Part shown: in pieces, positions 9,734 to 18,874 of the stretch | How the letters are laid out: each line of letters opens with the position of its first letter | How positions within the stretch are numbered: position 1 is the first letter of the stretch | Virus genome (UHGV): UHGV-1695118 | Reading direction: 5' to 3' (one strand) | DNA: 18,953 nucleotides | Source: a virus | The notes under the pieces: model-generated | The model's input: the letters and a program-made list of their open reading frames with translations, nothing else | What the model was told of the DNA's origin: nothing | Databases searched by the model: none | Translations under genes and position numbers: made by a program

Positions 9734-9851
9734 TGGCGCTTTTCGCCTTGTTCTGGTGTATCCATTTTGTATACTTCAAGCAAACAAAATGCTCTTTAAA
9801 AATCCGGCAGCGCTGAAATGCGTAGAAATCACCTGAAAAGGAGAGAGCATT

Positions 9852-10028
9852 ATGTCTTTTGATGATTACCAATGGCATGACGACTATGAACGAGAAAGCG
9901 TTATGCGTGCAATGTGCAATGTATGCAGCACGAAGAAAGGAGGCTGTAACGAGTGCAACGAATGCTTAGAACATTGGCTAAGGGCCGGACACGCCGAAAG
10001 GCTGAACGAAACAGAGAATCAAAAATAA
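9852..10028 (+). CDS. ninF: NinF-like small Cys-rich protein (58 aa)
   Basis: ATG 9852 with AAGGAGAG upstream. Sequence MSFDDYQWHDDYERESVMRAMCNVCSTKKGGCNECNECLEHWLRAGHAERLNETENQK. Positioned immediately upstream of ninG. Below the ORF-track cutoff; the NinF assignment is by position and size. Confidence 0.45.
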   Translation: MSFDDYQWHDDYERESVMRAMCNVCSTKKGGCNECNECLEHWLRAGHAERLNETENQK

Positions 10029-10042
10029 TCGGGGTGGTTTTT

Positions 10043-10648
10043 ATGCAAAACCCTAAAAAACCCATAAGACGCCGTTGCAAATGCTGCGGCGTTTTTTTTG
10101 AGCCTAAATATCACAATCAAACGTGGTGCAGCGATGAATGTCTGGAAGAACTGAAGTTTGACCAGCTATGCCGCGACCGTGAGAAGGCTATGAAGGCTAT
10201 GGAGCGGAAGAAACGCCGTGATAGCCAGAGGGAAGAACGCAACCGGAAGCGTAAACAGTTAAATCCGCGTAGTTATTGGATCAAACAAGTTCAAAATGTA
10301 TTTAACGCCTATATTCGCGAACGTGACGCGCGCTTGCCGTGTATATCTTGCGGGACTTACTACGGTGAGCAATGCGGGTGGGATGCAGGTCATTACAGGA
10401 CGGTAGCCGCCGCCGGACACCTTCGCTTCAACGAGGATAATTGCCATAAGCAATGTAGGCACTGCAACCAGACACTAGACGGCAACATCGGAGGGTATCG
10501 CCCGGCGCTGATTCGAAAAATTGGCCTCGCCAGGGTGGTAGCTCTGGAGAACAACAACGATACGCATAAATGGACGATTGCAGAATGTAAGGAGCTAATA
10601 AACATCTATCAGGCGAAATTGGACGCCTTAAGGAGAAAGGCAGCATGA
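10043..10648 (+). CDS. ninG: NinG / Rap-family recombination protein
   Basis: 201 aa from the internal ATG of ORF-track frame 9953..10648. Cys-rich N-terminus (RRCKCCGVFFEP...WCSDEC) and core (PRSYWIKQ...NAYIRERDARLPCISCG...WDAGHYRT...LRFNEDNCHKQC...) match remembered lambda NinG. Confidence 0.85.
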   Translation: MQNPKKPIRRRCKCCGVFFEPKYHNQTWCSDECLEELKFDQLCRDREKAMKAMERKKRRDSQREERNRKRKQLNPRSYWIKQVQNVFNAYIRERDARLPCISCGTYYGEQCGWDAGHYRTVAAAGHLRFNEDNCHKQCRHCNQTLDGNIGGYRPALIRKIGLARVVALENNNDTHKWTIAECKELINIYQAKLDALRRKAA

Positions 10649-11052
10649 ATGAATATTCTTTTAGCCTGCCTTACCCGCCATCGAATAATCGCTATTACCG
10701 ACATTCGCGCGGTTTTCACTATATCAGCAAAGTGGGGAAGGAATACAGGGAACAAGTAAGAGACATCATCGAGCTATTAAATTTAAATATTAACCTACCT
10801 TGCCGACTGGCAATTGCCATTTACGCCGCGCCGCCGGATAACCGGATCAGAGATCTGGATAATATCCCTAAATGCCTTTTTGACAGCCTTACTTATGCCG
10901 GATTCTGGAGGGATGACGGGCAAATTGACTCAATAAAAATTGTCCGCTGCCGGAAGGTAAAAGGCGGACGCTTGTTTATTAAGATCCGCGAACGCGGCGA
11001 CCTACTACCGGATATTGACGAATACGCGACTAATATGTGGGGTGAGCAATGA
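10645..11052 (+). CDS. rusA: RusA-family Holliday-junction resolvase
   Basis: 135 aa. N-terminus YSFSLPYPPSNNRYYRH, plus DNRIRDLDN and AGFWRDD segments, match the RusA family. ATG overlaps the ninG stop. Confidence 0.88.
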   Translation: MNEYSFSLPYPPSNNRYYRHSRGFHYISKVGKEYREQVRDIIELLNLNINLPCRLAIAIYAAPPDNRIRDLDNIPKCLFDSLTYAGFWRDDGQIDSIKIVRCRKVKGGRLFIKIRERGDLLPDIDEYATNMWGEQ

Positions 11053-11231
11053 AAAACGAAGTTAAAGATCTGCAAATAGATATTCAGCGCGACGAGCGTG
11101 ATTTAGAGACGGTCCGACAAATCCAGGCTTTCCACATGCGCGAATTACTTGCGCTGAAAGAGTTCGAAAGAAAGCTGGTGCAATCCATTTCTGATCGTAA
11201 ACGGCTGGCGGCGCGTTATGAGGGCAAATAA
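11049..11231 (+). CDS. Small charged coiled-coil protein (60 aa)
   Basis: ORF-track ORF translationally coupled on both sides (ATGA with rusA, TAATG with Q). Confidence 0.5.
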   Translation: MKNEVKDLQIDIQRDERDLETVRQIQAFHMRELLALKEFERKLVQSISDRKRLAARYEGK

Positions 11232-11959
11232 TGAATTTAGAATCCATTCTAAAATTCCACTTTCCTAAATCACCGCGATTATCTGACGAAAGCCGGGGCA
11301 CGTCCCCGGACGCTCTTAATACGACGGATGCGCTAACCGCTGCGGGTATGGCGCAATCGCGCGTAGAGCTTGGATATAGCGCTTTTTTAGGGAAGATGGA
11401 ACTATCACAAGCCGAAAAACATAGGGCCGTAGTTTTGCTTACAGAGCGTTTAAGGGCTATGGCGAAAGATTACGAATACGTGATGGAGTTAAACGAGGAT
11501 CAGCGCAATGGACTTATTATTCTTGTTGCCGTTTTCGCGTTTCGGGATTATTGCCAGAGTGCGGCGACCGAAAAAGTTTGCCCTAAGTGCGGCGGCCACG
11601 GGCATTTACCAAATCCATATTGCAAATACACATCGACAATTTGTTCGCGGTGCAACGGCAAAGGCTACGTTAAAAACCATTGCCAACGTTGCAAGGGGCG
11701 CGGAGAAGTACCGGATAAAGCAGCCAGTGAAGCGGCGGAAATGCCAGTATTCAAAACGTGCCAGCATTGCGGCGGGCGCGGGTACTCGCGTTTCCCGGTA
11801 GATCTCGTCCGGCAGGCCGTTAACCAGCTTGTTTTCCCGGTAAGCAGATCAACATGGTGGAAGAAATACCGGGTTTTCTATGAAGACGCCATAGCGGAGC
11901 TATTCAAAGAAGAGGCCCGCGCGGAAAGCGAAATTAAACGAGTGACACGGGGTGAATAA
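11231..11959 (+). CDS. Q: Late-gene antitermination protein Q (lambda Q type)
   Basis: 242 aa. N-terminus MNLESILKFHFPKSPRLSDESRGTSPDALNTTDALTAAGMAQSR parallels the remembered lambda Q start. Four CxxCxGxG zinc-finger motifs. Confidence 0.88.
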   Translation: MNLESILKFHFPKSPRLSDESRGTSPDALNTTDALTAAGMAQSRVELGYSAFLGKMELSQAEKHRAVVLLTERLRAMAKDYEYVMELNEDQRNGLIILVAVFAFRDYCQSAATEKVCPKCGGHGHLPNPYCKYTSTICSRCNGKGYVKNHCQRCKGRGEVPDKAASEAAEMPVFKTCQHCGGRGYSRFPVDLVRQAVNQLVFPVSRSTWWKKYRVFYEDAIAELFKEEARAESEIKRVTRGE

Positions 11960-12063
11960 TGGACAAGTTAGAAATAAACGATCAGTTTGCCGTTATCTTA
12001 TTCGAAGATAAAACAGGCGGCGCATGTTGTAAAAAAAAGTCACTGGTGCTGAAGCGCGCTTAA
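11959..12063 (+). CDS. Possible 34-aa ORF coupled to Q (TAATG)
   Basis: ATG overlaps the Q stop. Sequence MDKLEINDQFAVILFEDKTGGACCKKKSLVLKRA. No independent support. Confidence 0.2.
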   Translation: MDKLEINDQFAVILFEDKTGGACCKKKSLVLKRA

Positions 12064-12147
12064 TATTGGGTATGGCAAGCGCGTTAAATGATGGCGAATT
12101 GCCCGCCATCCCTGTTAAGCCAGTGCATATCTATAAAAGGGGCGACA

Positions 12148-12495
12148 ATGAAAATGATTAATATCGGTTGGTTATATTGCGAAAACTGCGACGACGACGG
12201 CATGGTTGTTAAGACTGAAAAAGGCTGCGGCCTCTTTCTGTATCAAGGCGATAAGTTTGTTTGTCCGCGATGCGGTGGTAGTGGTGAGATAGAAATTATT
12301 GAAGATAACGCCGTAGCGCAAGAACCAGAGCGCATTGTCCTTGATGAAAAAATAAAAATTCATCCTGATTTATTACAGCAAATTATCGATCACGTATCGG
12401 CAGCCGCAATCTACGGCGATAACAATTATCAGCGTGAAATGAACGTCAAACGTGCGATTGAGCAGTATTTCGAAGGTGACGACAATGAAGCCTAA
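12148..12495 (+). CDS. Zinc-ribbon protein (115 aa, two CxxC pairs)
   Basis: ATG 12148 with AAGGGG upstream, within ORF-track frame 12088..12495. Motifs YCENCDDDG and CPRCGGSG. Confidence 0.6.
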   Translation: MKMINIGWLYCENCDDDGMVVKTEKGCGLFLYQGDKFVCPRCGGSGEIEIIEDNAVAQEPERIVLDEKIKIHPDLLQQIIDHVSAAAIYGDNNYQREMNVKRAIEQYFEGDDNEA

Positions 12496-12754
12496 ATTAA
12501 AAGAGCATGAATTTAGGGATCTCATAAACGGAATAACCGATAAAGCTAGGATGTACTCAAATGCGCAACAGTTAAGGGCGGTTATAGTTACGGAATTAAT
12601 GAAATACATTGAGCCATGCGGACCAGGCGACGAAATGACTATGGATAAGGCCATCAAGCGCCGTTCGGCTGATTGGTCGGTTAGTAACACTGGATTAACC
12701 GGATACATTGAAGGCTATAACGACTGTTTACAGGATCATGGCAATGAAAAGTAA
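12485..12754 (+). CDS. Hypothetical protein (89 aa)
   Basis: ATG 12485 with AAGGTG upstream, within ORF-track frame 12452..12754. Confidence 0.55.
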   Translation: MKPKLKEHEFRDLINGITDKARMYSNAQQLRAVIVTELMKYIEPCGPGDEMTMDKAIKRRSADWSVSNTGLTGYIEGYNDCLQDHGNEK

Positions 12755-12959
12755 CCGCAAGCGCCTTGTAAGGGCATACGATAAAGCATTAAAGGCTTTT
12801 GATGATCTGCGACACAATAAGCGCCAGCGCCGCAAATGGGCGCGTATGCTTGTTTATGAGTGGCATTATTCTGATGCTTTCATGGAAAGTGCGCCGCTAT
12901 TAACACAGGAACAAGCCGACGAAGTAGCTAACGATAACGTTTATTATATGATGTGGTGA
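12744..12959 (+). CDS. Hypothetical basic protein (71 aa)
   Basis: ATG 12744 with AGGA 8 nt upstream, within ORF-track frame 12708..12959. Confidence 0.5.
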   Translation: MKSNRKRLVRAYDKALKAFDDLRHNKRQRRKWARMLVYEWHYSDAFMESAPLLTQEQADEVANDNVYYMMW

Positions 12960-12963
12960 TAAT

Positions 12964-13329
12964 ATGCAAATAATCATTGATTACCTTTGCCACGCTGCAA
13001 ATACGCTTTTCGGTTTTTATCAGCAACCACTCCTGAAAGAATGGGACGAAATGCTTAATGACATCCTCGACAAAGGGTTAATAATGGAATTCGGGGAGCT
13101 AACAATCAAATTTAATTACGAAGGCAAAGAATATGACATATGGGTAGGCAACAGATGGTATGCATACGGGCATATTTATTCAATTGGCGGTAAATACATT
13201 AAACGAAGTCAGGAATTTAGACCGCGCTTCCGCACAATGCGACGACTGCATGACCTGCATATGAAGATATTTGGAGATCAGGAGGCACGGGAATTATTCA
13301 AAATTTACGGGGGTAAATCATGGAGCTAA
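12964..13329 (+). CDS. Hypothetical protein (121 aa)
   Basis: ORF-track ORF; GGTGA upstream. Confidence 0.6.
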   Translation: MQIIIDYLCHAANTLFGFYQQPLLKEWDEMLNDILDKGLIMEFGELTIKFNYEGKEYDIWVGNRWYAYGHIYSIGGKYIKRSQEFRPRFRTMRRLHDLHMKIFGDQEARELFKIYGGKSWS

Positions 13330-13550
13330 AAATCTGGCAGGCTATCGACGTAGTTGATAATGAATTAACAATGTTTGCCACTGACGGAAAGCGCGTGGTT
13401 ATCGCTACATGGACGCATAACCATGATGATATTGTTTTTCGTCGCAAGGCTGCGGAGTGGCTTTTCTCTGACAACGGCTACACGATGAATATCATGCAGC
13501 TTTCCAGAATGAAGGATGAAAAGCTGGTTGATAGTTACACAACTGCATAG
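13320..13550 (+). CDS. Hypothetical protein (76 aa)
   Basis: ORF-track ORF; GGGGG 6 nt upstream. Confidence 0.55.
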   Translation: MELKIWQAIDVVDNELTMFATDGKRVVIATWTHNHDDIVFRRKAAEWLFSDNGYTMNIMQLSRMKDEKLVDSYTTA

Positions 13551-13560
13551 TGGGGCAAAT

Positions 13561-13794
13561 ATGTGTATCTATGAACACAAGCGGGATAAAACCCGCTTTT
13601 TTGTTCGTGCTGGCGTGGCTTACCAGTATCACGACTGCGGATATATCGAGGCGCTTGCTTACGATCTGGATTTCGAACAAGAAAAAGAATGGTTTGATTT
13701 CAAGATTTACCGGAAGCGCAAGCCAACGCGTGACGAACGACACGCTATCCGGGACTTTTTAATCAGCATAGACCGCTGGGAGGCAGACGAATGA
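13561..13794 (+). CDS. Hypothetical protein (77 aa)
   Basis: ATG 13561 with GTGGGG upstream, within ORF-track frame 13516..13794. Confidence 0.5.
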   Translation: MCIYEHKRDKTRFFVRAGVAYQYHDCGYIEALAYDLDFEQEKEWFDFKIYRKRKPTRDERHAIRDFLISIDRWEADE

Positions 13795-14018
13795 AAGTTA
13801 AATTCTTGCACGATCACGGATACCCGTCATTGAAACAGGTTGTTGGTAAGGTCGTTAATGTCGTTCATAGCGATGATATTGCTTGCATGATTAATGGTGC
13901 TGATCTCATTGCTGCTGGTGCTGATGACCATTACATCAATCCGGCGTGGTCGTATACGTTCAGCCTGGGCGACTTCGTGGGCGATAAGGGGCGCGGGCTG
14001 CAAGTAGTCGAGGGTTAA
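13791..14018 (+). CDS. Hypothetical protein (75 aa), possible distant member of the tandem paralog family
   Basis: ORF-track ORF with ATGA coupling. Weak similarity to the downstream paralogs (ADDHYINPAWSY versus the shared YI-DD-G-W motif). Confidence 0.5.
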   Translation: MKVKFLHDHGYPSLKQVVGKVVNVVHSDDIACMINGADLIAAGADDHYINPAWSYTFSLGDFVGDKGRGLQVVEG

Positions 14019-14022
14019 TATT

Positions 14023-14271
14023 ATGGACGTTTACGAGGATGTTTACCTGGCACCTTCATCTTATAGCTTTTATTTTCTGATAAATGGAAAGGCTTATAGA
14101 TGCGATTCTGACGGGGTGAGAGAAGAAAAGCTGTTTTGCACTAAAGGATACCTGGATGATTTGGTTTTTGCCGGGATATTTCGTAAACGCCCGGCTAACC
14201 TGGAAGAAGAAATGTTGATTGAGGTAATTAAAAATGAAAATAAGGGTAAGTTATTTCCGGGCGAAAGATAA
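14023..14271 (+). CDS. Hypothetical protein (82 aa)
   Basis: ORF-track ORF; GAGGG upstream. Confidence 0.55.
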   Translation: MDVYEDVYLAPSSYSFYFLINGKAYRCDSDGVREEKLFCTKGYLDDLVFAGIFRKRPANLEEEMLIEVIKNENKGKLFPGER

Positions 14272-14485
14272 GGCAACAGGAAAGCAGATTGCGATCCTGG
14301 TTAACGAGGCGCAGTACATGTTTGTCCTTCAGCCGTGGTGTGTTGTAGATCTTAACGACAACTGTCGCCGCCACGCTGCGCGAAGTGCTGTTGGTATGAA
14401 AGGCTGGCAACCGCGCGACATGGAAAAATATTGTGAATGGAAATTGGTGGCAAAATACACGGTCGATTATAAAGGGGTTTTCTGA
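14234..14485 (+). CDS. Hypothetical protein (83 aa)
   Basis: ORF-track ORF overlapping the previous gene by 38 nt; GAGG 9 nt upstream. Confidence 0.5.
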   Translation: MKIRVSYFRAKDKATGKQIAILVNEAQYMFVLQPWCVVDLNDNCRRHAARSAVGMKGWQPRDMEKYCEWKLVAKYTVDYKGVF

Positions 14486-14709
14486 TGTTTGTAAAATGTA
14501 TAAAGTCTCGTTTCCCTAATCTTTTTGTGGTTGATGAGATTTACGACATAGAAACGCTAATAAGCAGAACTAACGATATTCAGTACATTTATGATGAAGA
14601 TGGCGATCCGTGGTTTTTTTATAACGATCTCAATGGTAGCGGATTCGTTGATGGCGTTGGCGGTAATGGTGTGCCAGTTGCGCTATTTATAAATGCAAAT
14701 AAGGAATGA
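14485..14709 (+). CDS. Tandem paralog family member A (74 aa)
   Basis: Sequence MFVKCIKSRFPNLFVVDEIYDIETLISRTNDIQYIYDEDGDPWFFY aligns with the three following ORFs. ATG overlaps the upstream stop. Confidence 0.6.
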   Translation: MFVKCIKSRFPNLFVVDEIYDIETLISRTNDIQYIYDEDGDPWFFYNDLNGSGFVDGVGGNGVPVALFINANKE

Positions 14710-14714
14710 ATATC

Positions 14715-14921
14715 ATGTATGTTAGATGCACTGAATCAAAATCATCATGCTTTGAGGTTGGCGGAATATATACCGTAGCTCACCTGACTGGTGATGAACT
14801 TAACACCCAATACATTAAAGACGACCACGGAGACGCGTGGCGCTATTGGGATTGTTACGCGCGTGGACACGTTGCCAGCCAGTTCAGTACGGAACCGATC
14901 GCGCGTTTTGTTAAGTGGTGA
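14715..14921 (+). CDS. Tandem paralog family member B (68 aa)
   Basis: Sequence MYVRCTESKSSCFEVGGIYTVAHLTGDELNTQYIKDDHGDAWRYW. ATG 14715 with AAGGA 9 nt upstream, within ORF-track frame 14706..14921. Confidence 0.6.
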   Translation: MYVRCTESKSSCFEVGGIYTVAHLTGDELNTQYIKDDHGDAWRYWDCYARGHVASQFSTEPIARFVKW

Positions 14922-14930
14922 GGTAGTGTT

Positions 14931-15170
14931 ATGAGACAGAATCAGAGATACCAGTGCACATACTCACGATGCAGCGCGTTTTTTAAGAATGGCAAGATCT
15001 ACGAAGTCGGAGCGGCATTGGTTGACGCAAAGGATCAGGAATATATTCACGCCATTACTGACGACCAGGGCCAGTTATGGCGATTTTATAAGATGGGATG
15101 TGGAACTGCGCTTGTTTATGCGCGGGCTTGTGGTGGTGCTTTTGCTGCGTTTTCGTATGTAGGTGCATAA
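14931..15170 (+). CDS. Tandem paralog family member C (79 aa)
   Basis: Segment YQCTYSRCSAFFKNGKIYEVGAALVDAKDQEYIHAITDDQGQLWRFY. GAGGT upstream. Confidence 0.6.
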   Translation: MRQNQRYQCTYSRCSAFFKNGKIYEVGAALVDAKDQEYIHAITDDQGQLWRFYKMGCGTALVYARACGGAFAAFSYVGA

Positions 15171-15171
15171 A

Positions 15172-15390
15172 ATGATTTTAACGTGTAACGAATCGAGATT
15201 AGGTTGTTTTGAGGAAGGAGCACAGTACACGGCTGAAAAACCGATGGGATTGTCTCCTAAATTTCCGTTTATCGTCGTGACTGACACTTACGGTCACTTA
15301 TGGTATGCAGGGCCGCTAGGCGGTATTGGTCGTTATGTTGTCCGTAGTTTGGATGGGGCGATGAAGGTTACTTTTACGGAAGAAACGTAA
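15172..15390 (+). CDS. Tandem paralog family member D (72 aa)
   Basis: Sequence MILTCNESRLGCFEEGAQYTAEKPMGLSPKFPFIVVTDTYGHLWYAG. ATG 15172 within ORF-track frame 15163..15390 (which uses a GTG start). Confidence 0.55.
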   Translation: MILTCNESRLGCFEEGAQYTAEKPMGLSPKFPFIVVTDTYGHLWYAGPLGGIGRYVVRSLDGAMKVTFTEET

Positions 15391-15416
15391 ATGTGATCTG
15401 TATTACAAGGTTTACG

Positions 15417-15450
15417 AAATGGCATTGTTTCGGCAGTGCCATTTTGTTAT
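15417..15450 (+). terminator. Rho-independent terminator-like hairpin after the paralog array
   Basis: AAATGGCATTG-TTTCGG-CAGTGCCATTT: 11-bp stem with one G-U pair and a 6-nt loop, followed by TGTTAT. Confidence 0.5.
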
Positions 15451-15488
15451 AAAGAAGCTGAAGAGAGAACGATGCGGAGGGTAGAAAA

Positions 15489-15767
15489 ATGAAACGCTGG
15501 ATTAACAAAGAAGTCGAATCTCGCTTAAACGCATTTTGGGAGATGGTGGAGAAAGAAGACCCAGCACACGCTGCAAGCCCTTACCTGAACAACATCGAAT
15601 ATCACTACATTGCAGCAAACAACGCGGAGTTCGAAGAAGAAGGTGGAGCCGACAAGTTCGCACAAAGCAACGCATTCAACAACGCAAACGAAATGATGAT
15701 GGCAGTCATCGAACAGGCAGAGGAAGACTACGAATGCAAATCACTTGAATTCGCACGTATGGCATAA
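15489..15767 (+). CDS. Acidic small protein (92 aa)
   Basis: ORF-track ORF with GGAGGG upstream. Strongly Asp/Glu-rich (EFEEEGGADKF, EQAEEDYE). Confidence 0.6.
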   Translation: MKRWINKEVESRLNAFWEMVEKEDPAHAASPYLNNIEYHYIAANNAEFEEEGGADKFAQSNAFNNANEMMMAVIEQAEEDYECKSLEFARMA

Positions 15768-15777
15768 GGGGGAAACC

Positions 15778-15918
15778 ATGAACGCTAACGCTAAATATCC
15801 GGCCTGGGTTTTCGAACTGTACGCAAGATACTTTGAATTACTGGCACAAGGTGAAGAAGCATTAAGCATTGACGAGTACGCGGAGTGCTTAGGGTTTAAA
15901 GGAGACGAAGAAGCATAA
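15778..15918 (+). CDS. Hypothetical small protein (46 aa)
   Basis: ATG 15778 with AAGGGGG 5 nt upstream. Sequence MNANAKYPAWVFELYARYFELLAQGEEALSIDEYAECLGFKGDEEA. Below the ORF-track cutoff. Confidence 0.45.
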   Translation: MNANAKYPAWVFELYARYFELLAQGEEALSIDEYAECLGFKGDEEA

Positions 15919-15923
15919 AACAC

Positions 15924-15939
15924 GGGGCCGGATGGCCCC
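15924..15939. other. Perfect hairpin GGGGCC-GGAT-GGCCCC in an intergenic spacer
   Basis: 6-bp GC stem with a GGAT loop. No U-tract on the plus strand; a moderately T-rich tract follows on the minus strand. Confidence 0.4.
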
Positions 15940-15961
15940 ATCAAATCAGAAGGGTGTAATC

Positions 15962-16261
15962 ATGAAAAGCGCTAAATTTATTGCTTGCTGTTTTGTTGAA
16001 GTTCCTAACGATGATGTTTTCTGTAATTATGAATTTAAAGACAGCTTAGGCAGATCTCACATTGTTGTTGGCAAACGCGGCGACTGGTTATATATAACCG
16101 ATGACGATATGATTTTTACCAGAAATCAACTTTTTCACATCCACTCAGTAAATAATTATGCGCCAGTTGCCGCTATATCCGTAATGGATATGCACGCTAA
16201 GAAATGGATTGAAAAGGACGATATTAACGAAGCGCGTAGCTTACCTGGTGCGGAGTTTTAA
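15962..16261 (+). CDS. Hypothetical protein (99 aa)
   Basis: ATG 15962 with AAGGGTG upstream, within ORF-track frame 15932..16261. Contains GDWLYITDDD, loosely like the paralog motif. Confidence 0.55.
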   Translation: MKSAKFIACCFVEVPNDDVFCNYEFKDSLGRSHIVVGKRGDWLYITDDDMIFTRNQLFHIHSVNNYAPVAAISVMDMHAKKWIEKDDINEARSLPGAEF

Positions 16262-16264
16262 TTT

Positions 16265-16519
16265 ATGGAAATAATCAAAATATGGCGCGGCAACAGTAAG
16301 GCTGACGGTGAGTTTTGCCGCGTCGTTCAATTCGTAAATTATGGTAGGTTTTACGAGCTACCTTATGACAAAAGGAAAGATGATTTCTATTTAAGCGAGT
16401 CAATCCCGGTGCACAGAAAAATAAAGGCGCTTAGGGGGTTGTTGCGAAGTGGTTTTTATTCTTGCCCTAACCCATTAAACAATCCTGAACTGGTAGCTAT
16501 TTTTTACGAAGGAGAATAG
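16265..16519 (+). CDS. Hypothetical protein (84 aa)
   Basis: ORF-track ORF; GGAG 9 nt upstream. Confidence 0.5.
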   Translation: MEIIKIWRGNSKADGEFCRVVQFVNYGRFYELPYDKRKDDFYLSESIPVHRKIKALRGLLRSGFYSCPNPLNNPELVAIFYEGE

Positions 16520-16522
16520 ACA

Positions 16523-16846
16523 ATGTCTAAATTTATCAGCGTTAAAGTTTTCCGTGGCACTTTACCGAACGAAGAAAGATTAGGACAATTTGCCGGGCAA
16601 CCTAGTGCATGTTTCCGTGTAGCCACTGAAGACGATGCGCATGTTAAATGCTTCCACGTATCGGAACCGCCTTTTAATGCAGACCATCTTGAAGACCCGG
16701 ATAGAATTAAAAGCCTAGTATCTGCCTATCTGATGTTCCAGGGTATCGCTGATATGGAAGTGGAATTGCTTGGCGCTGAACTGGTGGCAGAATACAAAAT
16801 TACTGAAGCAGAAAGCGGAGAATCAAAAATTGAGCGCATCAAATAA
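16523..16846 (+). CDS. Hypothetical acidic protein (107 aa)
   Basis: ORF-track ORF with AAGGAG 8 nt upstream. Confidence 0.65.
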   Translation: MSKFISVKVFRGTLPNEERLGQFAGQPSACFRVATEDDAHVKCFHVSEPPFNADHLEDPDRIKSLVSAYLMFQGIADMEVELLGAELVAEYKITEAESGESKIERIK

Positions 16847-17081
16847 ACCTTACAAAATCCGTTGTAAAGGTGAATACCCTGGCTTTACGACTGGTTGCGA
16901 ATACTTGGGCCACATTGGATGCGGCCCTTTCGGTGAGTTAGGGATGAATACGCTGGACGACGACGGCGACAGCCGGACGCTTGATCTTGATTCTGATGAT
17001 TTCGAATACATCCCGCCAGTAACTTACCGTGCCGTTGATGATTTCCTGGCTGAACATGAAGACGAGGGCGATGATGATTGA
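16830..17081 (+). CDS. Cys-containing protein with a highly acidic C-terminus (83 aa from TTG 16830; ORF-track frame starts at 16770)
   Basis: Start uncertain: both candidates are TTG codons; GGAG lies 9 nt upstream of 16830. C-terminus DDDGDSRTLDLDSDDFEYIPP...AEHEDEGDDD. Confidence 0.4.
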   Translation: MSASNKPYKIRCKGEYPGFTTGCEYLGHIGCGPFGELGMNTLDDDGDSRTLDLDSDDFEYIPPVTYRAVDDFLAEHEDEGDDD

Positions 17082-17268
17082 ATGCCTTATAGCTGTGATT
17101 GTTTTGCTTTATATCGCTGGCGCTATCCTGATGTCTTGTTTTATTAAGTTTAGCGGAGCTGAACCTGGCGGCCTTGAGATTCCTTTTTGGCCTGTGACTG
17201 TGTTTATCGCTTTCTTCGACGCTACGGCAGGGCAGATCAATCGAGCTATTAAGGAGCGCAAGAAATGA
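17074..17268 (+). CDS. Small membrane protein (64 aa)
   Basis: ATG 17074 with GAGGG upstream, within ORF-track frame 17029..17268. Hydrophobic stretch IECLIAVIVLLYIAGAILMSCFI. Confidence 0.5.
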   Translation: MIECLIAVIVLLYIAGAILMSCFIKFSGAEPGGLEIPFWPVTVFIAFFDATAGQINRAIKERKK

Positions 17269-17444
17269 TTGAAGATGGGGTGTACGCAACAGTAGTAGAC
17301 GGGCTGTTTTACCGCGTAGAAGGTGATGATATTCGCATCCGCGTTGGCGGTGGTGAGTGGGTAGCGCCAATCATTAAGACGGCGCGAGAAACAATTAAAA
17401 TATTTCTTGATGCTGGTGAACTGGTGAGGGTTAGCGACCTATGA
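17265..17444 (+). CDS. Hypothetical small protein (59 aa)
   Basis: ATG overlaps the upstream stop (ATGA); AAGGAG 8 nt upstream. Sequence MIEDGVYATVVDGLFYRVEGDDIRIRVGGGEWVAPIIKTAREITKIFLDAGELVRVSDL. Below the ORF-track cutoff. Confidence 0.5.
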   Translation: MIEDGVYATVVDGLFYRVEGDDIRIRVGGGEWVAPIIKTARETIKIFLDAGELVRVSDL

Positions 17445-17617
17445 ACGAGATCGAAGATGGTATCTATTTGCATAAGGTATTTAACATCGTCTATTTACTT
17501 AAAGGTAATAAGGTGATGATAAGACCTGATGACGATCCACATTGGGAATCAAGCGACATGGATCGGCGGCATATGCAAATGTTGCTTGATAACGGCCTGA
17601 TATATAGAAAGCCGTAA
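17441..17617 (+). CDS. Hypothetical small protein (58 aa), possible paralog of the preceding gene
   Basis: ATGA coupling. Sequence MNEIEDGIYLHKVFNIVYLLKGNKVMIRPDDDPHWESSDMDRRHMQMLLDNGLIYRKP shares an IEDG(V/I)Y start with the upstream ORF. Confidence 0.45.
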   Translation: MNEIEDGIYLHKVFNIVYLLKGNKVMIRPDDDPHWESSDMDRRHMQMLLDNGLIYRKP

Positions 17618-17624
17618 GCCGTAT

Positions 17625-17653
17625 TTGTAGGGCGTAAACAAACAGATTAAAAT
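17625..17653 (+). promoter_or_regulatory. Candidate promoter (-35 TTGTAG, 17-bp spacer, -10 TAAAAT) upstream of the lysis genes; possible late PR'-like promoter
   Basis: Read directly; lies 25-50 nt upstream of a strong terminator. Identified by eye only. Confidence 0.35.
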
Positions 17654-17680
17654 ATTTCCTAACAATGCGAAATTGTAATT

Positions 17681-17711
17681 ACCCGGCCCCGCGCCGGGTT
17701 TTTGCTTTGTT
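17681..17711 (+). terminator. Rho-independent terminator immediately upstream of the holin gene (tR'-like position)
   Basis: ACCCGGC-CCCGC-GCCGGGT 7-bp GC-rich stem followed by TTTTGCTTTGTT. Confidence 0.7.
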
Positions 17712-17723
17712 GGAGGAAAATCT

Positions 17724-17924
17724 ATGTTCGACAAAATACGGGGGGCGTGCGCGTATGTGGCTGGGGCCGTAACTGCTTTTTTCGGCGCGATAACCATCAA
17801 TGACATTGCCGTCTTTGTGGGTATCTTATCAACCGTAGGCACATTTGCCGTTAACTATTACTTCAAATCACAGGAGAACAAGCGAGCGCAAGAGGAACAC
17901 GACGCGCGAATGGGGAATAAGTAA
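17724..17924 (+). CDS. Holin, class II pinholin-like (two predicted transmembrane helices)
   Basis: 66 aa with GGAGG 7 nt upstream. Two hydrophobic helices and a charged C-terminal tail. Immediately precedes the SAR endolysin, as in phage 21. Confidence 0.75.
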   Translation: MFDKIRGACAYVAGAVTAFFGAITINDIAVFVGILSTVGTFAVNYYFKSQENKRAQEEHDARMGNK

Positions 17925-18416
17925 ATGATTAGCCAATCGCTGAAAAACAAGATTATTGCTGCGGCGGCTGGTGGGGCGATCGCTATTGCGGCTGTGATGG
18001 TTAAACCATTAGAAGGCGTGGAGTACGATCCGTATCGTGATGCTATCGGTGTATGGACTGTATGTTATGGTCACACCGGAAAAGACATTATGCTGGGTAA
18101 AACTTACACGCAATCAGAATGCGATGCTTTGTTAAACAAAGATCTCCACAAAACCGCAAAAGCGATTGGCCCATATATTAAAGTCGAAATATCAGATTTT
18201 ACCCGCGCGGCGCTTTATTCATTCGCCTATAACGTAGGCGCTACCAACTTCAAAACATCAACATTATTGAAGCTACTCAATGACGGCAAGAAATCGGAGG
18301 CGTGCGCACAGCTTAAACGCTGGATATATGCTGGTGGTAAGCAGTGGCAAGGGTTAATTAACCGCCGTGATGTTGAATATGCCGTTTGCGAATGGGGTGA
18401 AACATGGACAAGGTGA
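17925..18416 (+). CDS. R: SAR endolysin (GH24 lysozyme with N-terminal signal-anchor-release domain)
   Basis: 163 aa. Gly/Ala-rich N-terminal segment [17 protein letters not shown], then [34 protein letters not shown]...[20 protein letters not shown]...[12 protein letters not shown], close to remembered phage 21 R. Confidence 0.92.
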
Positions 18417-18874
18417 AGACGTTAATCATCGCCGTTGTTGTTTGCATTATTGCCGGGCTTACCGCCGTAACGTGTTATTACCAGGGTGAGGCGGCAAGGT
18501 TACAGGAAGAAGTCACGGTGACGAAAGGCGCACTAAAAACAGCAAGTAACACTATCCAGCAGATGAAGGAGCGAAACGCCGAACTGTCAAAACTTGATAA
18601 GAGGTATCACGATGAGATTAAAGCTATCAGATCTGACATTGCCGATCTTCGCGCTGGCATTGATAGCGGTGCTATCAGGTTGCACGTCAACGCCGAGCCA
18701 GTGTACGTGCACGACGCCACCGGAACCGCCAGCAGCATTAATGGAGCCACCTGTAGACTTACTGCCAGTGCTCAATCAAATTATCTATCCCTCAGAGAAC
18801 AACTAAAAGAGAAAGACGCGAAGATCACCGGATTACAGGACTACATCAAAACGCAGTGCATACGCAAAGAATAA
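18404..18874 (+). CDS. Rz: Rz-like i-spanin
   Basis: 156 aa. N-terminal transmembrane helix ([16 protein letters not shown]) and coiled-coil periplasmic domain. Overlaps the endolysin 3' end. Confidence 0.8.
18612..18806 (+). CDS. Rz1: Rz1-like o-spanin lipoprotein, nested in the +1 frame inside Rz
   Basis: 64 aa from ATG 18612 with AGAGG 7 nt upstream, within ORF-track frame 18594..18806. Signal peptide with lipobox LSGC, then a Pro-rich mature region. Confidence 0.75.
   Translation: MRLKLSDLTLPIFALALIAVLSGCTSTPSQCTCTTPPEPPAALMEPPVDLLPVLNQIIYPSENN

Follow-up and report, generated by a model that had tools for sequence, protein, structure and literature searches.

In phage lambda, the Q-binding element is located in the spacer of the late promoter, and the hexamer AACGAT is a sigma-70-dependent pause element where Q loads. 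The lambda record reads TAAATT, then TGACTC, then AACGAT at positions +1 to +6. The lambda PR′ cassette has been described with a 13-bp site as the Q-binding element, and a −35-like element upstream of the pause element serves the repositioned region 4 of sigma (PMC9388147). Two reports place PR′ directly after Q in the Stx phages as well, so that the genes inserted there (stx, tRNAs) are late and Q-dependent (PMC6266700, PMC7547250). The mEp021-type phages constitute the Nus-dependent 'mEpimmI' group (PMC11893012). The accessible literature on this group annotates a terminator ahead of the lysis genes and leaves a late promoter or qut site unmentioned, and a limited literature search found no precedent for a phage in which Q and its qut site are separated.

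We analysed a stretch of 18,953 nucleotides from the UHGV virus genome UHGV-1695118 (hereafter referred to as the window). Its 8 kb from Q to the end are 85–88% identical to the Escherichia phages MagusPhagus, mEp010, mEp044, mEp554, mEp013, mEp021 and mEp515, and it is a member of the mEp021 (mEpimmI) group of coliphages. An earlier note on this DNA had proposed that the counterpart of PR′ and qut might lie just ahead of the holin gene, in which case the small genes between Q and the holin would be delayed-early rather than late. We find this interpretation to be the best-supported one and hold it with good confidence: the late-gene switch appears to be situated immediately ahead of the holin gene and 5.7 kb past Q.

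Organisation of the region from Q to the lysis genes

The features of the region are as follows.

9953–10648, + strand: NinG gene
10645–11052, + strand: RusA gene
11231–11959, + strand: Q antiterminator gene, 242 aa (PF03589, E = 1.2e-30)
11957–11961, + strand: TAATG, the Q stop codon overlapping the ATG of the first island ORF
11959–17617, + strand: island of ~21 small ORFs (from the ORF list)
17625–17630, + strand: candidate −35 TTGTAG, 3/6 match to the consensus, the weakest element
17631–17647, + strand: 17-bp spacer
17635–17647, + strand: candidate Q-binding element, a conserved 13-bp stretch, (A)AAACAAACAGAT, beside the −10, matching the lambda element in size and location
17648–17653, + strand: −10 hexamer TAAAAT, 5/6 match to the consensus
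17654–17660, + strand: variable discriminator, 7 nt (6 nt in locus L054)
17661–17666, + strand: predicted start A17661 and −10-like hexamer AACAAT, a candidate sigma-70-dependent pause element
17681–17704, + strand: intrinsic terminator (tR′ equivalent) with a 7-bp stem, a 5-nt loop and a T run
17712–17716, + strand: Shine-Dalgarno sequence GGAGG ahead of the holin gene
17724–17924, + strand: holin gene, with its ATG at 17724 (Pfam PF16080, E = 5.4e-16), the first late gene of the phage
17925–18416, + strand: endolysin gene (Pfam PF00959)
18404–18874, + strand: Rz-type spanin gene (Pfam PF03245)

The window Q aligns with lambda Q along its full length (240 residues) at 33% identity and matches PDB entries 7UBM and 7UBN (Q-lambda; E = 6e-37 for 7UBM). 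It represents a complete homolog of lambda Q within the Q-lambda family (PF03589). In the alignment, it differs from lambda Q by a 33-residue insertion (residues ~117–149) in the DNA-contacting arm, which carries a second CxxC...CxxC zinc-ribbon motif. An arm insertion, varying in length, is common to the whole Q subfamily found in Enterobacterales prophages. The Q search also returned a series of genome_contigs matches (L105–L128) with a 621-nt Q of lambda length that is, like lambda Q itself, 33% identical to the query. These came from many assemblies of unrelated organisms, among them Pseudomonas, Bacillota, Bradyrhizobium and Shewanella, some of the contigs being ~48.4 kb long, and most likely represent lambda DNA contamination of the assemblies.

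As a comparison set, we used 55 loci of the group, comprising 6 annotated phages, 46 IMG/VR contigs, 2 contigs with a 72%-identical Q and the window. Among the annotated relatives, the gene that follows Q either overlaps the Q stop codon or directly adjoins it, which leaves no intergenic room for a PR′ at that point. A pattern search after the Q stop found a lambda-type cassette near Q in none of the 55 loci. The statement of the earlier note that 11960–12147 contains no comparably good promoter likewise stood up to a consensus scan, a sigma-70 matrix and the cassette-pattern search. In P0010, whose Q is 47% identical, a gene also overlaps the Q stop, and the sole contig stops before the lysis genes; a search of viral_contigs for more distant island-type relatives found no similar locus. 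The first ORF after Q in the window (34 aa, 11959–12147) matches only residues 1–29 of the 67-residue phrog_35000 of the relatives, pointing to a local rearrangement directly after Q in the window. A minus-strand promoter-like sequence, TTTACA-17-TATCTT (12033–12005), points back into Q.

The genes of the island follow each other closely and share one strand, and most of the ORFs match PHROG families of unknown function; the islands of the relatives carry a Lar-type gene and a PAPS-reductase-type gene. Tandem paralogs are present in the window, with three adjacent phrog_31142 genes and two adjacent phrog_15318 genes (14485–15170 and 17265–17617). A hairpin followed by a T run (AAGCGGG-ATAAAA-CCCGCTT; 13579–13604, + strand) lies inside the island and overlaps the start of ORF 13561–13794. 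It is almost invariant in 54 of the 55 relatives, in which the surrounding coding sequence varies, and in mEp021 its equivalent follows Q by only ~240 nt; the hairpin may be a genuine terminator, or else an RNA element belonging to the delayed-early transcript. At the end of ORF 16523–16846, a promoter-like TTGAGC-17-CAAAAT (16830–16858, + strand; TTGAGC-17-TAAAGT in the relatives) precedes a noncoding gap (~98 nt in the annotated relatives). This site is common to 25 of the 53 loci that contain the block described below, and may be an internal island promoter.

Elements of the block ahead of the holin gene and their conservation

The earlier note had described a −35 TTGTAG, a 17-bp spacer and a −10 TAAAAT at 5.7 kb from Q. 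All three are present, and the promoter candidate begins 5,666 nt past the Q stop at 11959. Absent from that note was AACAAT, which follows TAAAAT after 7 nt. A consensus promoter scan of the window did not call the 17625–17653 site, because its −35 matches the consensus at only 3 of 6 positions (8/12 overall). A weighted sigma-70 matrix, built from consensus frequencies, placed it fourth among all + strand positions of the window and second in the interval from Q to the holin gene. The pattern TAAAAT-N5-8-AANNAT is expected ~0.95 times per shuffled window, so that the promoter, viewed in this single sequence, is not beyond chance. The AAACAAACAGAT motif has a single occurrence in the window. 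The stretch before AACAAT, ATTTCCT, matches a −35 at 3/6 at best, and inspection of the window sequence alongside the relatives revealed no recognisable −35-like element directly upstream of AACAAT.

With the same matrix, another candidate for the late promoter, CTGACA-16-TATCAT (13468–13495), with a terminator at 13579, outscored the 17625–17653 site in the window. We rejected it because its hexamers read CTGATG and CATCGC in most relatives, a change that resembles ordinary codon variation.

The block ahead of the holin gene was found in 53 of the 55 group loci, and its 42 distinct versions were used to score column conservation. TAAAAT-N6/7-AACAAT is present in exactly one copy in each of the 53 loci, always ~75 nt ahead of the lysis cassette, and the distance from the Q stop to the block ranges from 1,927 to 6,725 nt. 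Since the relatives are closely related, the invariance of columns is of limited weight. The invariance is distributed selectively: the −10 hexamer (TAAAAT in 53/53 loci) and AACAAT are invariant in 6/6 columns each, the bases between them, the most variable part of the block, in 2/7 (five variants), the 13-bp stretch beside the −10 in 9/13, each terminator stem arm in 6/7, the terminator loop in 1/5 (10 variants) and the −35 hexamer in 2/6. The 3′ end of the upstream ORF has 1% invariant columns, and the holin codons 43%. The −35 reads TTGTAG in 20 loci, TTGTGG in 17, TTGTAT in 2 and TCGCGC in 14 (MagusPhagus being one of these), the last of which makes the promoter strength doubtful in a quarter of the group.

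The block sequence is kept between two different upstream gene ends, and also ahead of the divergent holin allele of L027, L028 and L054; its conservation begins ~13 bp upstream of the −10 whichever gene is upstream. Thus, the block behaves as a module with its left edge ~13 bp upstream of the −10. When the + strand promoters predicted from Q up to the block were clustered over the 53 loci (matrix threshold >= 8.5 bits), the block proved to be the most widely shared one, occurring in 39/53 loci, as compared with 25/53 for the next cluster. A search of 5,426 complete E. coli genomes gave 35 with a match, strains UMNK88 and MS 21-1 among them; all 35 contain both the 3′ end of Q and the block, and never within ~650 nt of each other.

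The GC-rich terminator that the earlier note had placed between the promoter and the holin gene was also borne out, with the hairpin ACCCGGC/CCCGC/GCCGGGT (17681–17699) followed by the T run, TTTTGCTTTG, and then by GGAGG and the holin ATG. The stem has 7 pairs, 6 of them G-C, and in a terminator scan it was one of the best candidates in the window. Folded by itself, the hairpin has a predicted energy of −13.3 kcal/mol, the predicted 52-nt RNA has a folding z of −4.2 versus shuffles, and records of the relatives annotate this terminator as TERM_5, T9 or T10.

Being the best-supported element and already annotated in relatives, the terminator could account for the block without a late promoter. 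It would then end the early rightward operon, possibly as the 't5' of the mEp021 literature, and be followed by the ribosome-binding region of the holin gene; the two −10-like hexamers would be conserved for another reason, and late transcription would stem from readthrough by polymerase that had been modified at another site, through the N-like Gp17 at nutR2 or through Q loading at an unrecognised promoter. Consistent with this, the −35 is weak, or absent in the 14 TCGCGC loci, and the mEp021 terminators t1, t2 and t5 have been shown experimentally, in the context of Gp17 antitermination (PMC11893012). However, this explanation accounts neither for the complete invariance of TAAAAT and AACAAT on the two sides of a variable 7 nt nor for a conservation edge that stays ~13 bp upstream of the −10 whichever gene precedes the block. 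Moreover, no other lambda-Q-type cassette follows Q, and other predicted promoters are common to 25/53 loci at most. We consider it unlikely that the block serves as a terminator only.

The promoter and the terminator together predict a terminated RNA of ~44 nt, short and stable with a U tail, and the block might accordingly be a stand-alone small RNA gene whose constitutively made RNA acts in the lysogen independently of Q. One report indeed describes the short terminated PR′ transcript of Stx phages as a regulatory small RNA (PMC7547250). Such an RNA is nevertheless compatible with a late cassette, being a by-product of the same cassette in lambda and the Stx phages. Rfam and tRNA scans gave no matches, and the nearly invariant sequence offers no evidence of a target or of covariation. 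A function as a small RNA gene in its own right seems to us quite unlikely. As a separate observation, the initial 12 nt of the late RNA predicted here, 17661–17672 (AACAAUGCGAAA), are complementary to the U-rich 17700–17711 between the terminator and the holin Shine-Dalgarno sequence, and this pairing would enclose the terminator hairpin in read-through transcripts. The variants keep the pairing (a C-to-U change; a one-base deletion in L054), the variation being too small for a test.

Two other sites in the window resemble nut sites. The nutR1-like site (2335–2371, + strand) upstream of the N-like gene (2427–2717) consists of a boxA-like CGCTCATTAACAA and a boxB-like GCCGC-TGGAAGT-GCGGC; between it and the repressor gene with its terminator (1933–1950), the window has its best sigma-70 site, TTGACT-17-TATATT (2051–2079). 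A conserved noncoding segment after the cytosine methyltransferase gene (9748–9830, + strand) is probably the published nutR2 site, with the nutR2-like part at 9790–9830. A promoter-like TTGTTC-16-TATACT (9748–9775) stands directly upstream of its boxA-like TGCTCTTTAAAAA (9790–9802), and nutR2 may have its own start.

The block has some resemblance to such sites. TAACAAT could be taken as boxA-like and ACAAT-GCGAA-ATTGT as a boxB-like hairpin, in which case Gp17 would carry early transcription through the terminator; the boxA of the nutR1-like site also has TTAACAAT (2335–2347), and the combination of a 5-bp stem and a GCGAA pentaloop is reminiscent of boxB. However, the block lacks the boxA core GCTC and has TTTCCTAACAAT where the nutR2-like and nutR1-like sites have TGCTCTTTAAAAA (9790–9802) and CGCTCATTAACAA (2335–2347), respectively. 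The 5-bp stem is intact in 29/53 loci and broken without compensation in 24/53, the hairpin (17662–17676) ends 4 nt before the terminator stem and leaves no room for complex assembly, and Rfam gave no match. On the absent boxA core, the broken stem and the proximity of the terminator, we rejected the nut-like reading, which we regard as highly improbable.

Comparison with late cassettes of lambda, lambdoid prophages and Stx phages

To compare the block with cassettes outside the group, we used 49 loci with a 32–41% identical Q, namely lambdoid prophages of Enterobacterales and other Gammaproteobacteria, plus lambda. The arrangement −35/N15-18/TAnnnT/N5-7/AAnnnT occurs within ~80 nt after the Q stop in 42 of these 49 loci (0.015 expected by chance per window) versus 0 of the 55 group loci. 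The pause hexamer of the outside cassettes is AACGAT in 27 cases, AATGAT in 6 and AACAAT in 1; the last is the L076 cassette, which lies directly after Q and has AACAAT at the same position as the window block. A simple scan detected a terminator in 31/49 outside loci, mostly ending 48–100 nt past the pause element.

We then scored the window with models trained only on the outside cassettes. The model combining the −10 and the pause element ranked position 17648 1st of 37,856 positions on both window strands, although about 1 site per shuffled window scores as high as the block with these two elements; the 106-nt gap on the correct strand represents 0.3% of the scored positions. With a model of three elements (−35, −10 and pause), the block was not among the top six, all scores being at the level of shuffles; this model fails to single out the block because of the −35.

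The likeness to lambda PR′ and tR′ that the earlier note had claimed is thus backed by the order of the elements, the invariant hexamers and the contrast between outside and group loci. As in lambda, with an antiterminator of the same family, a candidate −35 is followed by a 17-bp spacer with a ~13-bp conserved block, a −10, 6–7 nt, a −10-like hexamer, a terminator and the lysis genes. The hexamer at +1 to +6 is AACAAT in the window and AACGAT in lambda, a likeness at the level of sequence. The differences are also clear. The cassette lies 5.7 kb from Q in the window (1.9–6.7 kb in the relatives), whereas the lambda −35 starts 42 nt past the Q stop. The window terminator lies at about +44 and that of lambda at about +194, making the window leader unusually short. 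The −35 is weak (3/6), in contrast to TTGACT in lambda, and no −35-like element is evident before the pause hexamer, where lambda has TTGACT. The spacer, and with it the candidate Q-binding element, is unrelated in sequence to that of lambda, and the window Q has the extra zinc ribbon that lambda Q lacks. Taken together, the block probably belongs to the lambda PR′-qut-tR′ kind but departs from it in two canonical features, adjacency to Q and a −35-like element before the pause.

Counterparts of the window Q are found in the Enterobacterales lambdoid prophages with a long-arm Q (for example L061 of Enterobacter kobei, L062, L066 of Kluyvera and L076 of Pectobacterium), whose Q proteins are 32–41% identical and have an inserted zinc ribbon as in the window. 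Their cassettes have the same layout of −10, 6–7 nt and AAnnnT, and in most cases where a terminator was detected it ends 48–100 nt past the pause element. Unlike the window, where a coding gene fills the site after Q, all of them have the cassette 5–45 nt after the Q stop. Their usual −35 is TTTACT and their usual spacer TTTCCCGAATCTGTG, which differs from that of the window.

The Stx phages, such as 933W, resemble the window in having variable accessory genes inserted between Q and the holin gene. In the window, by contrast, the insertions lie upstream of the proposed late promoter and are therefore predicted to be Q-independent.

The predicted late-gene switch and the expression of the island

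Segment 17625–17704 is probably the PR′-qut-tR′ cassette of the group, moved away from Q, and the island would then be delayed-early. With the cassette 5.7 kb past Q and the first island gene on the Q stop, the island is expected to be part of the Q-containing delayed-early transcript and not of the late one.

The mechanism that we propose is modelled on lambda (PMC9388147). Host RNA polymerase would start constitutively at about A17661, and sigma-70 would re-bind the −10-like AACAAT in the first transcribed bases, causing the polymerase to pause. In the absence of Q, the hairpin and T run would stop transcription after ~44 nt. Q, as a product of the early rightward operon, would bind the conserved AAACAAACAGAT beside the −10, load onto the paused polymerase and allow it to continue past the terminator and transcribe the genes for the holin, the endolysin, the spanin and the virion. 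The island would be transcribed together with Q from the early rightward operon, which is presumably antiterminated by the N-like Gp17 (PMC11893012). The sigma-70 promoter, the Q-binding element, the pause element and the Q-dependent readthrough are all predictions for this locus.

Q-dependent antitermination is itself well known, and the layout described here is a modest variation on the textbook arrangement of lambda. It would correct the assumption, made in textbook diagrams, that PR′ always abuts Q. A 130-bp fragment carrying the block would offer a test object for the recognition of a different DNA site by a member of the Q-lambda family that has an added zinc ribbon, in the setting of a very short leader and with no evident −35-like element for region 4 of sigma.

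In each phage, the position of the late promoter sets the expression timing of ~20 genes that are uncharacterised. With the cassette next to the holin gene, as proposed, the variable island would be expressed with Q, before lysis and independently of Q, in keeping with early roles such as host takeover or anti-restriction. The mEpimmI phages are common temperate gut coliphages, and this reading of their islands is the opposite of that of the late-expressed Stx insertions. A more far-reaching and rather doubtful extension is that, with Q unlinked from qut in the mEpimmI phages, the gap has become a hot spot of variable small genes upstream of the late promoter, forming a Q-independent, delayed-early arsenal for host takeover or anti-defence, and that in lysogens the constitutive promoter and its very near terminator may yield an abundant ~44-nt RNA with a regulatory role of the kind reported for StxS.
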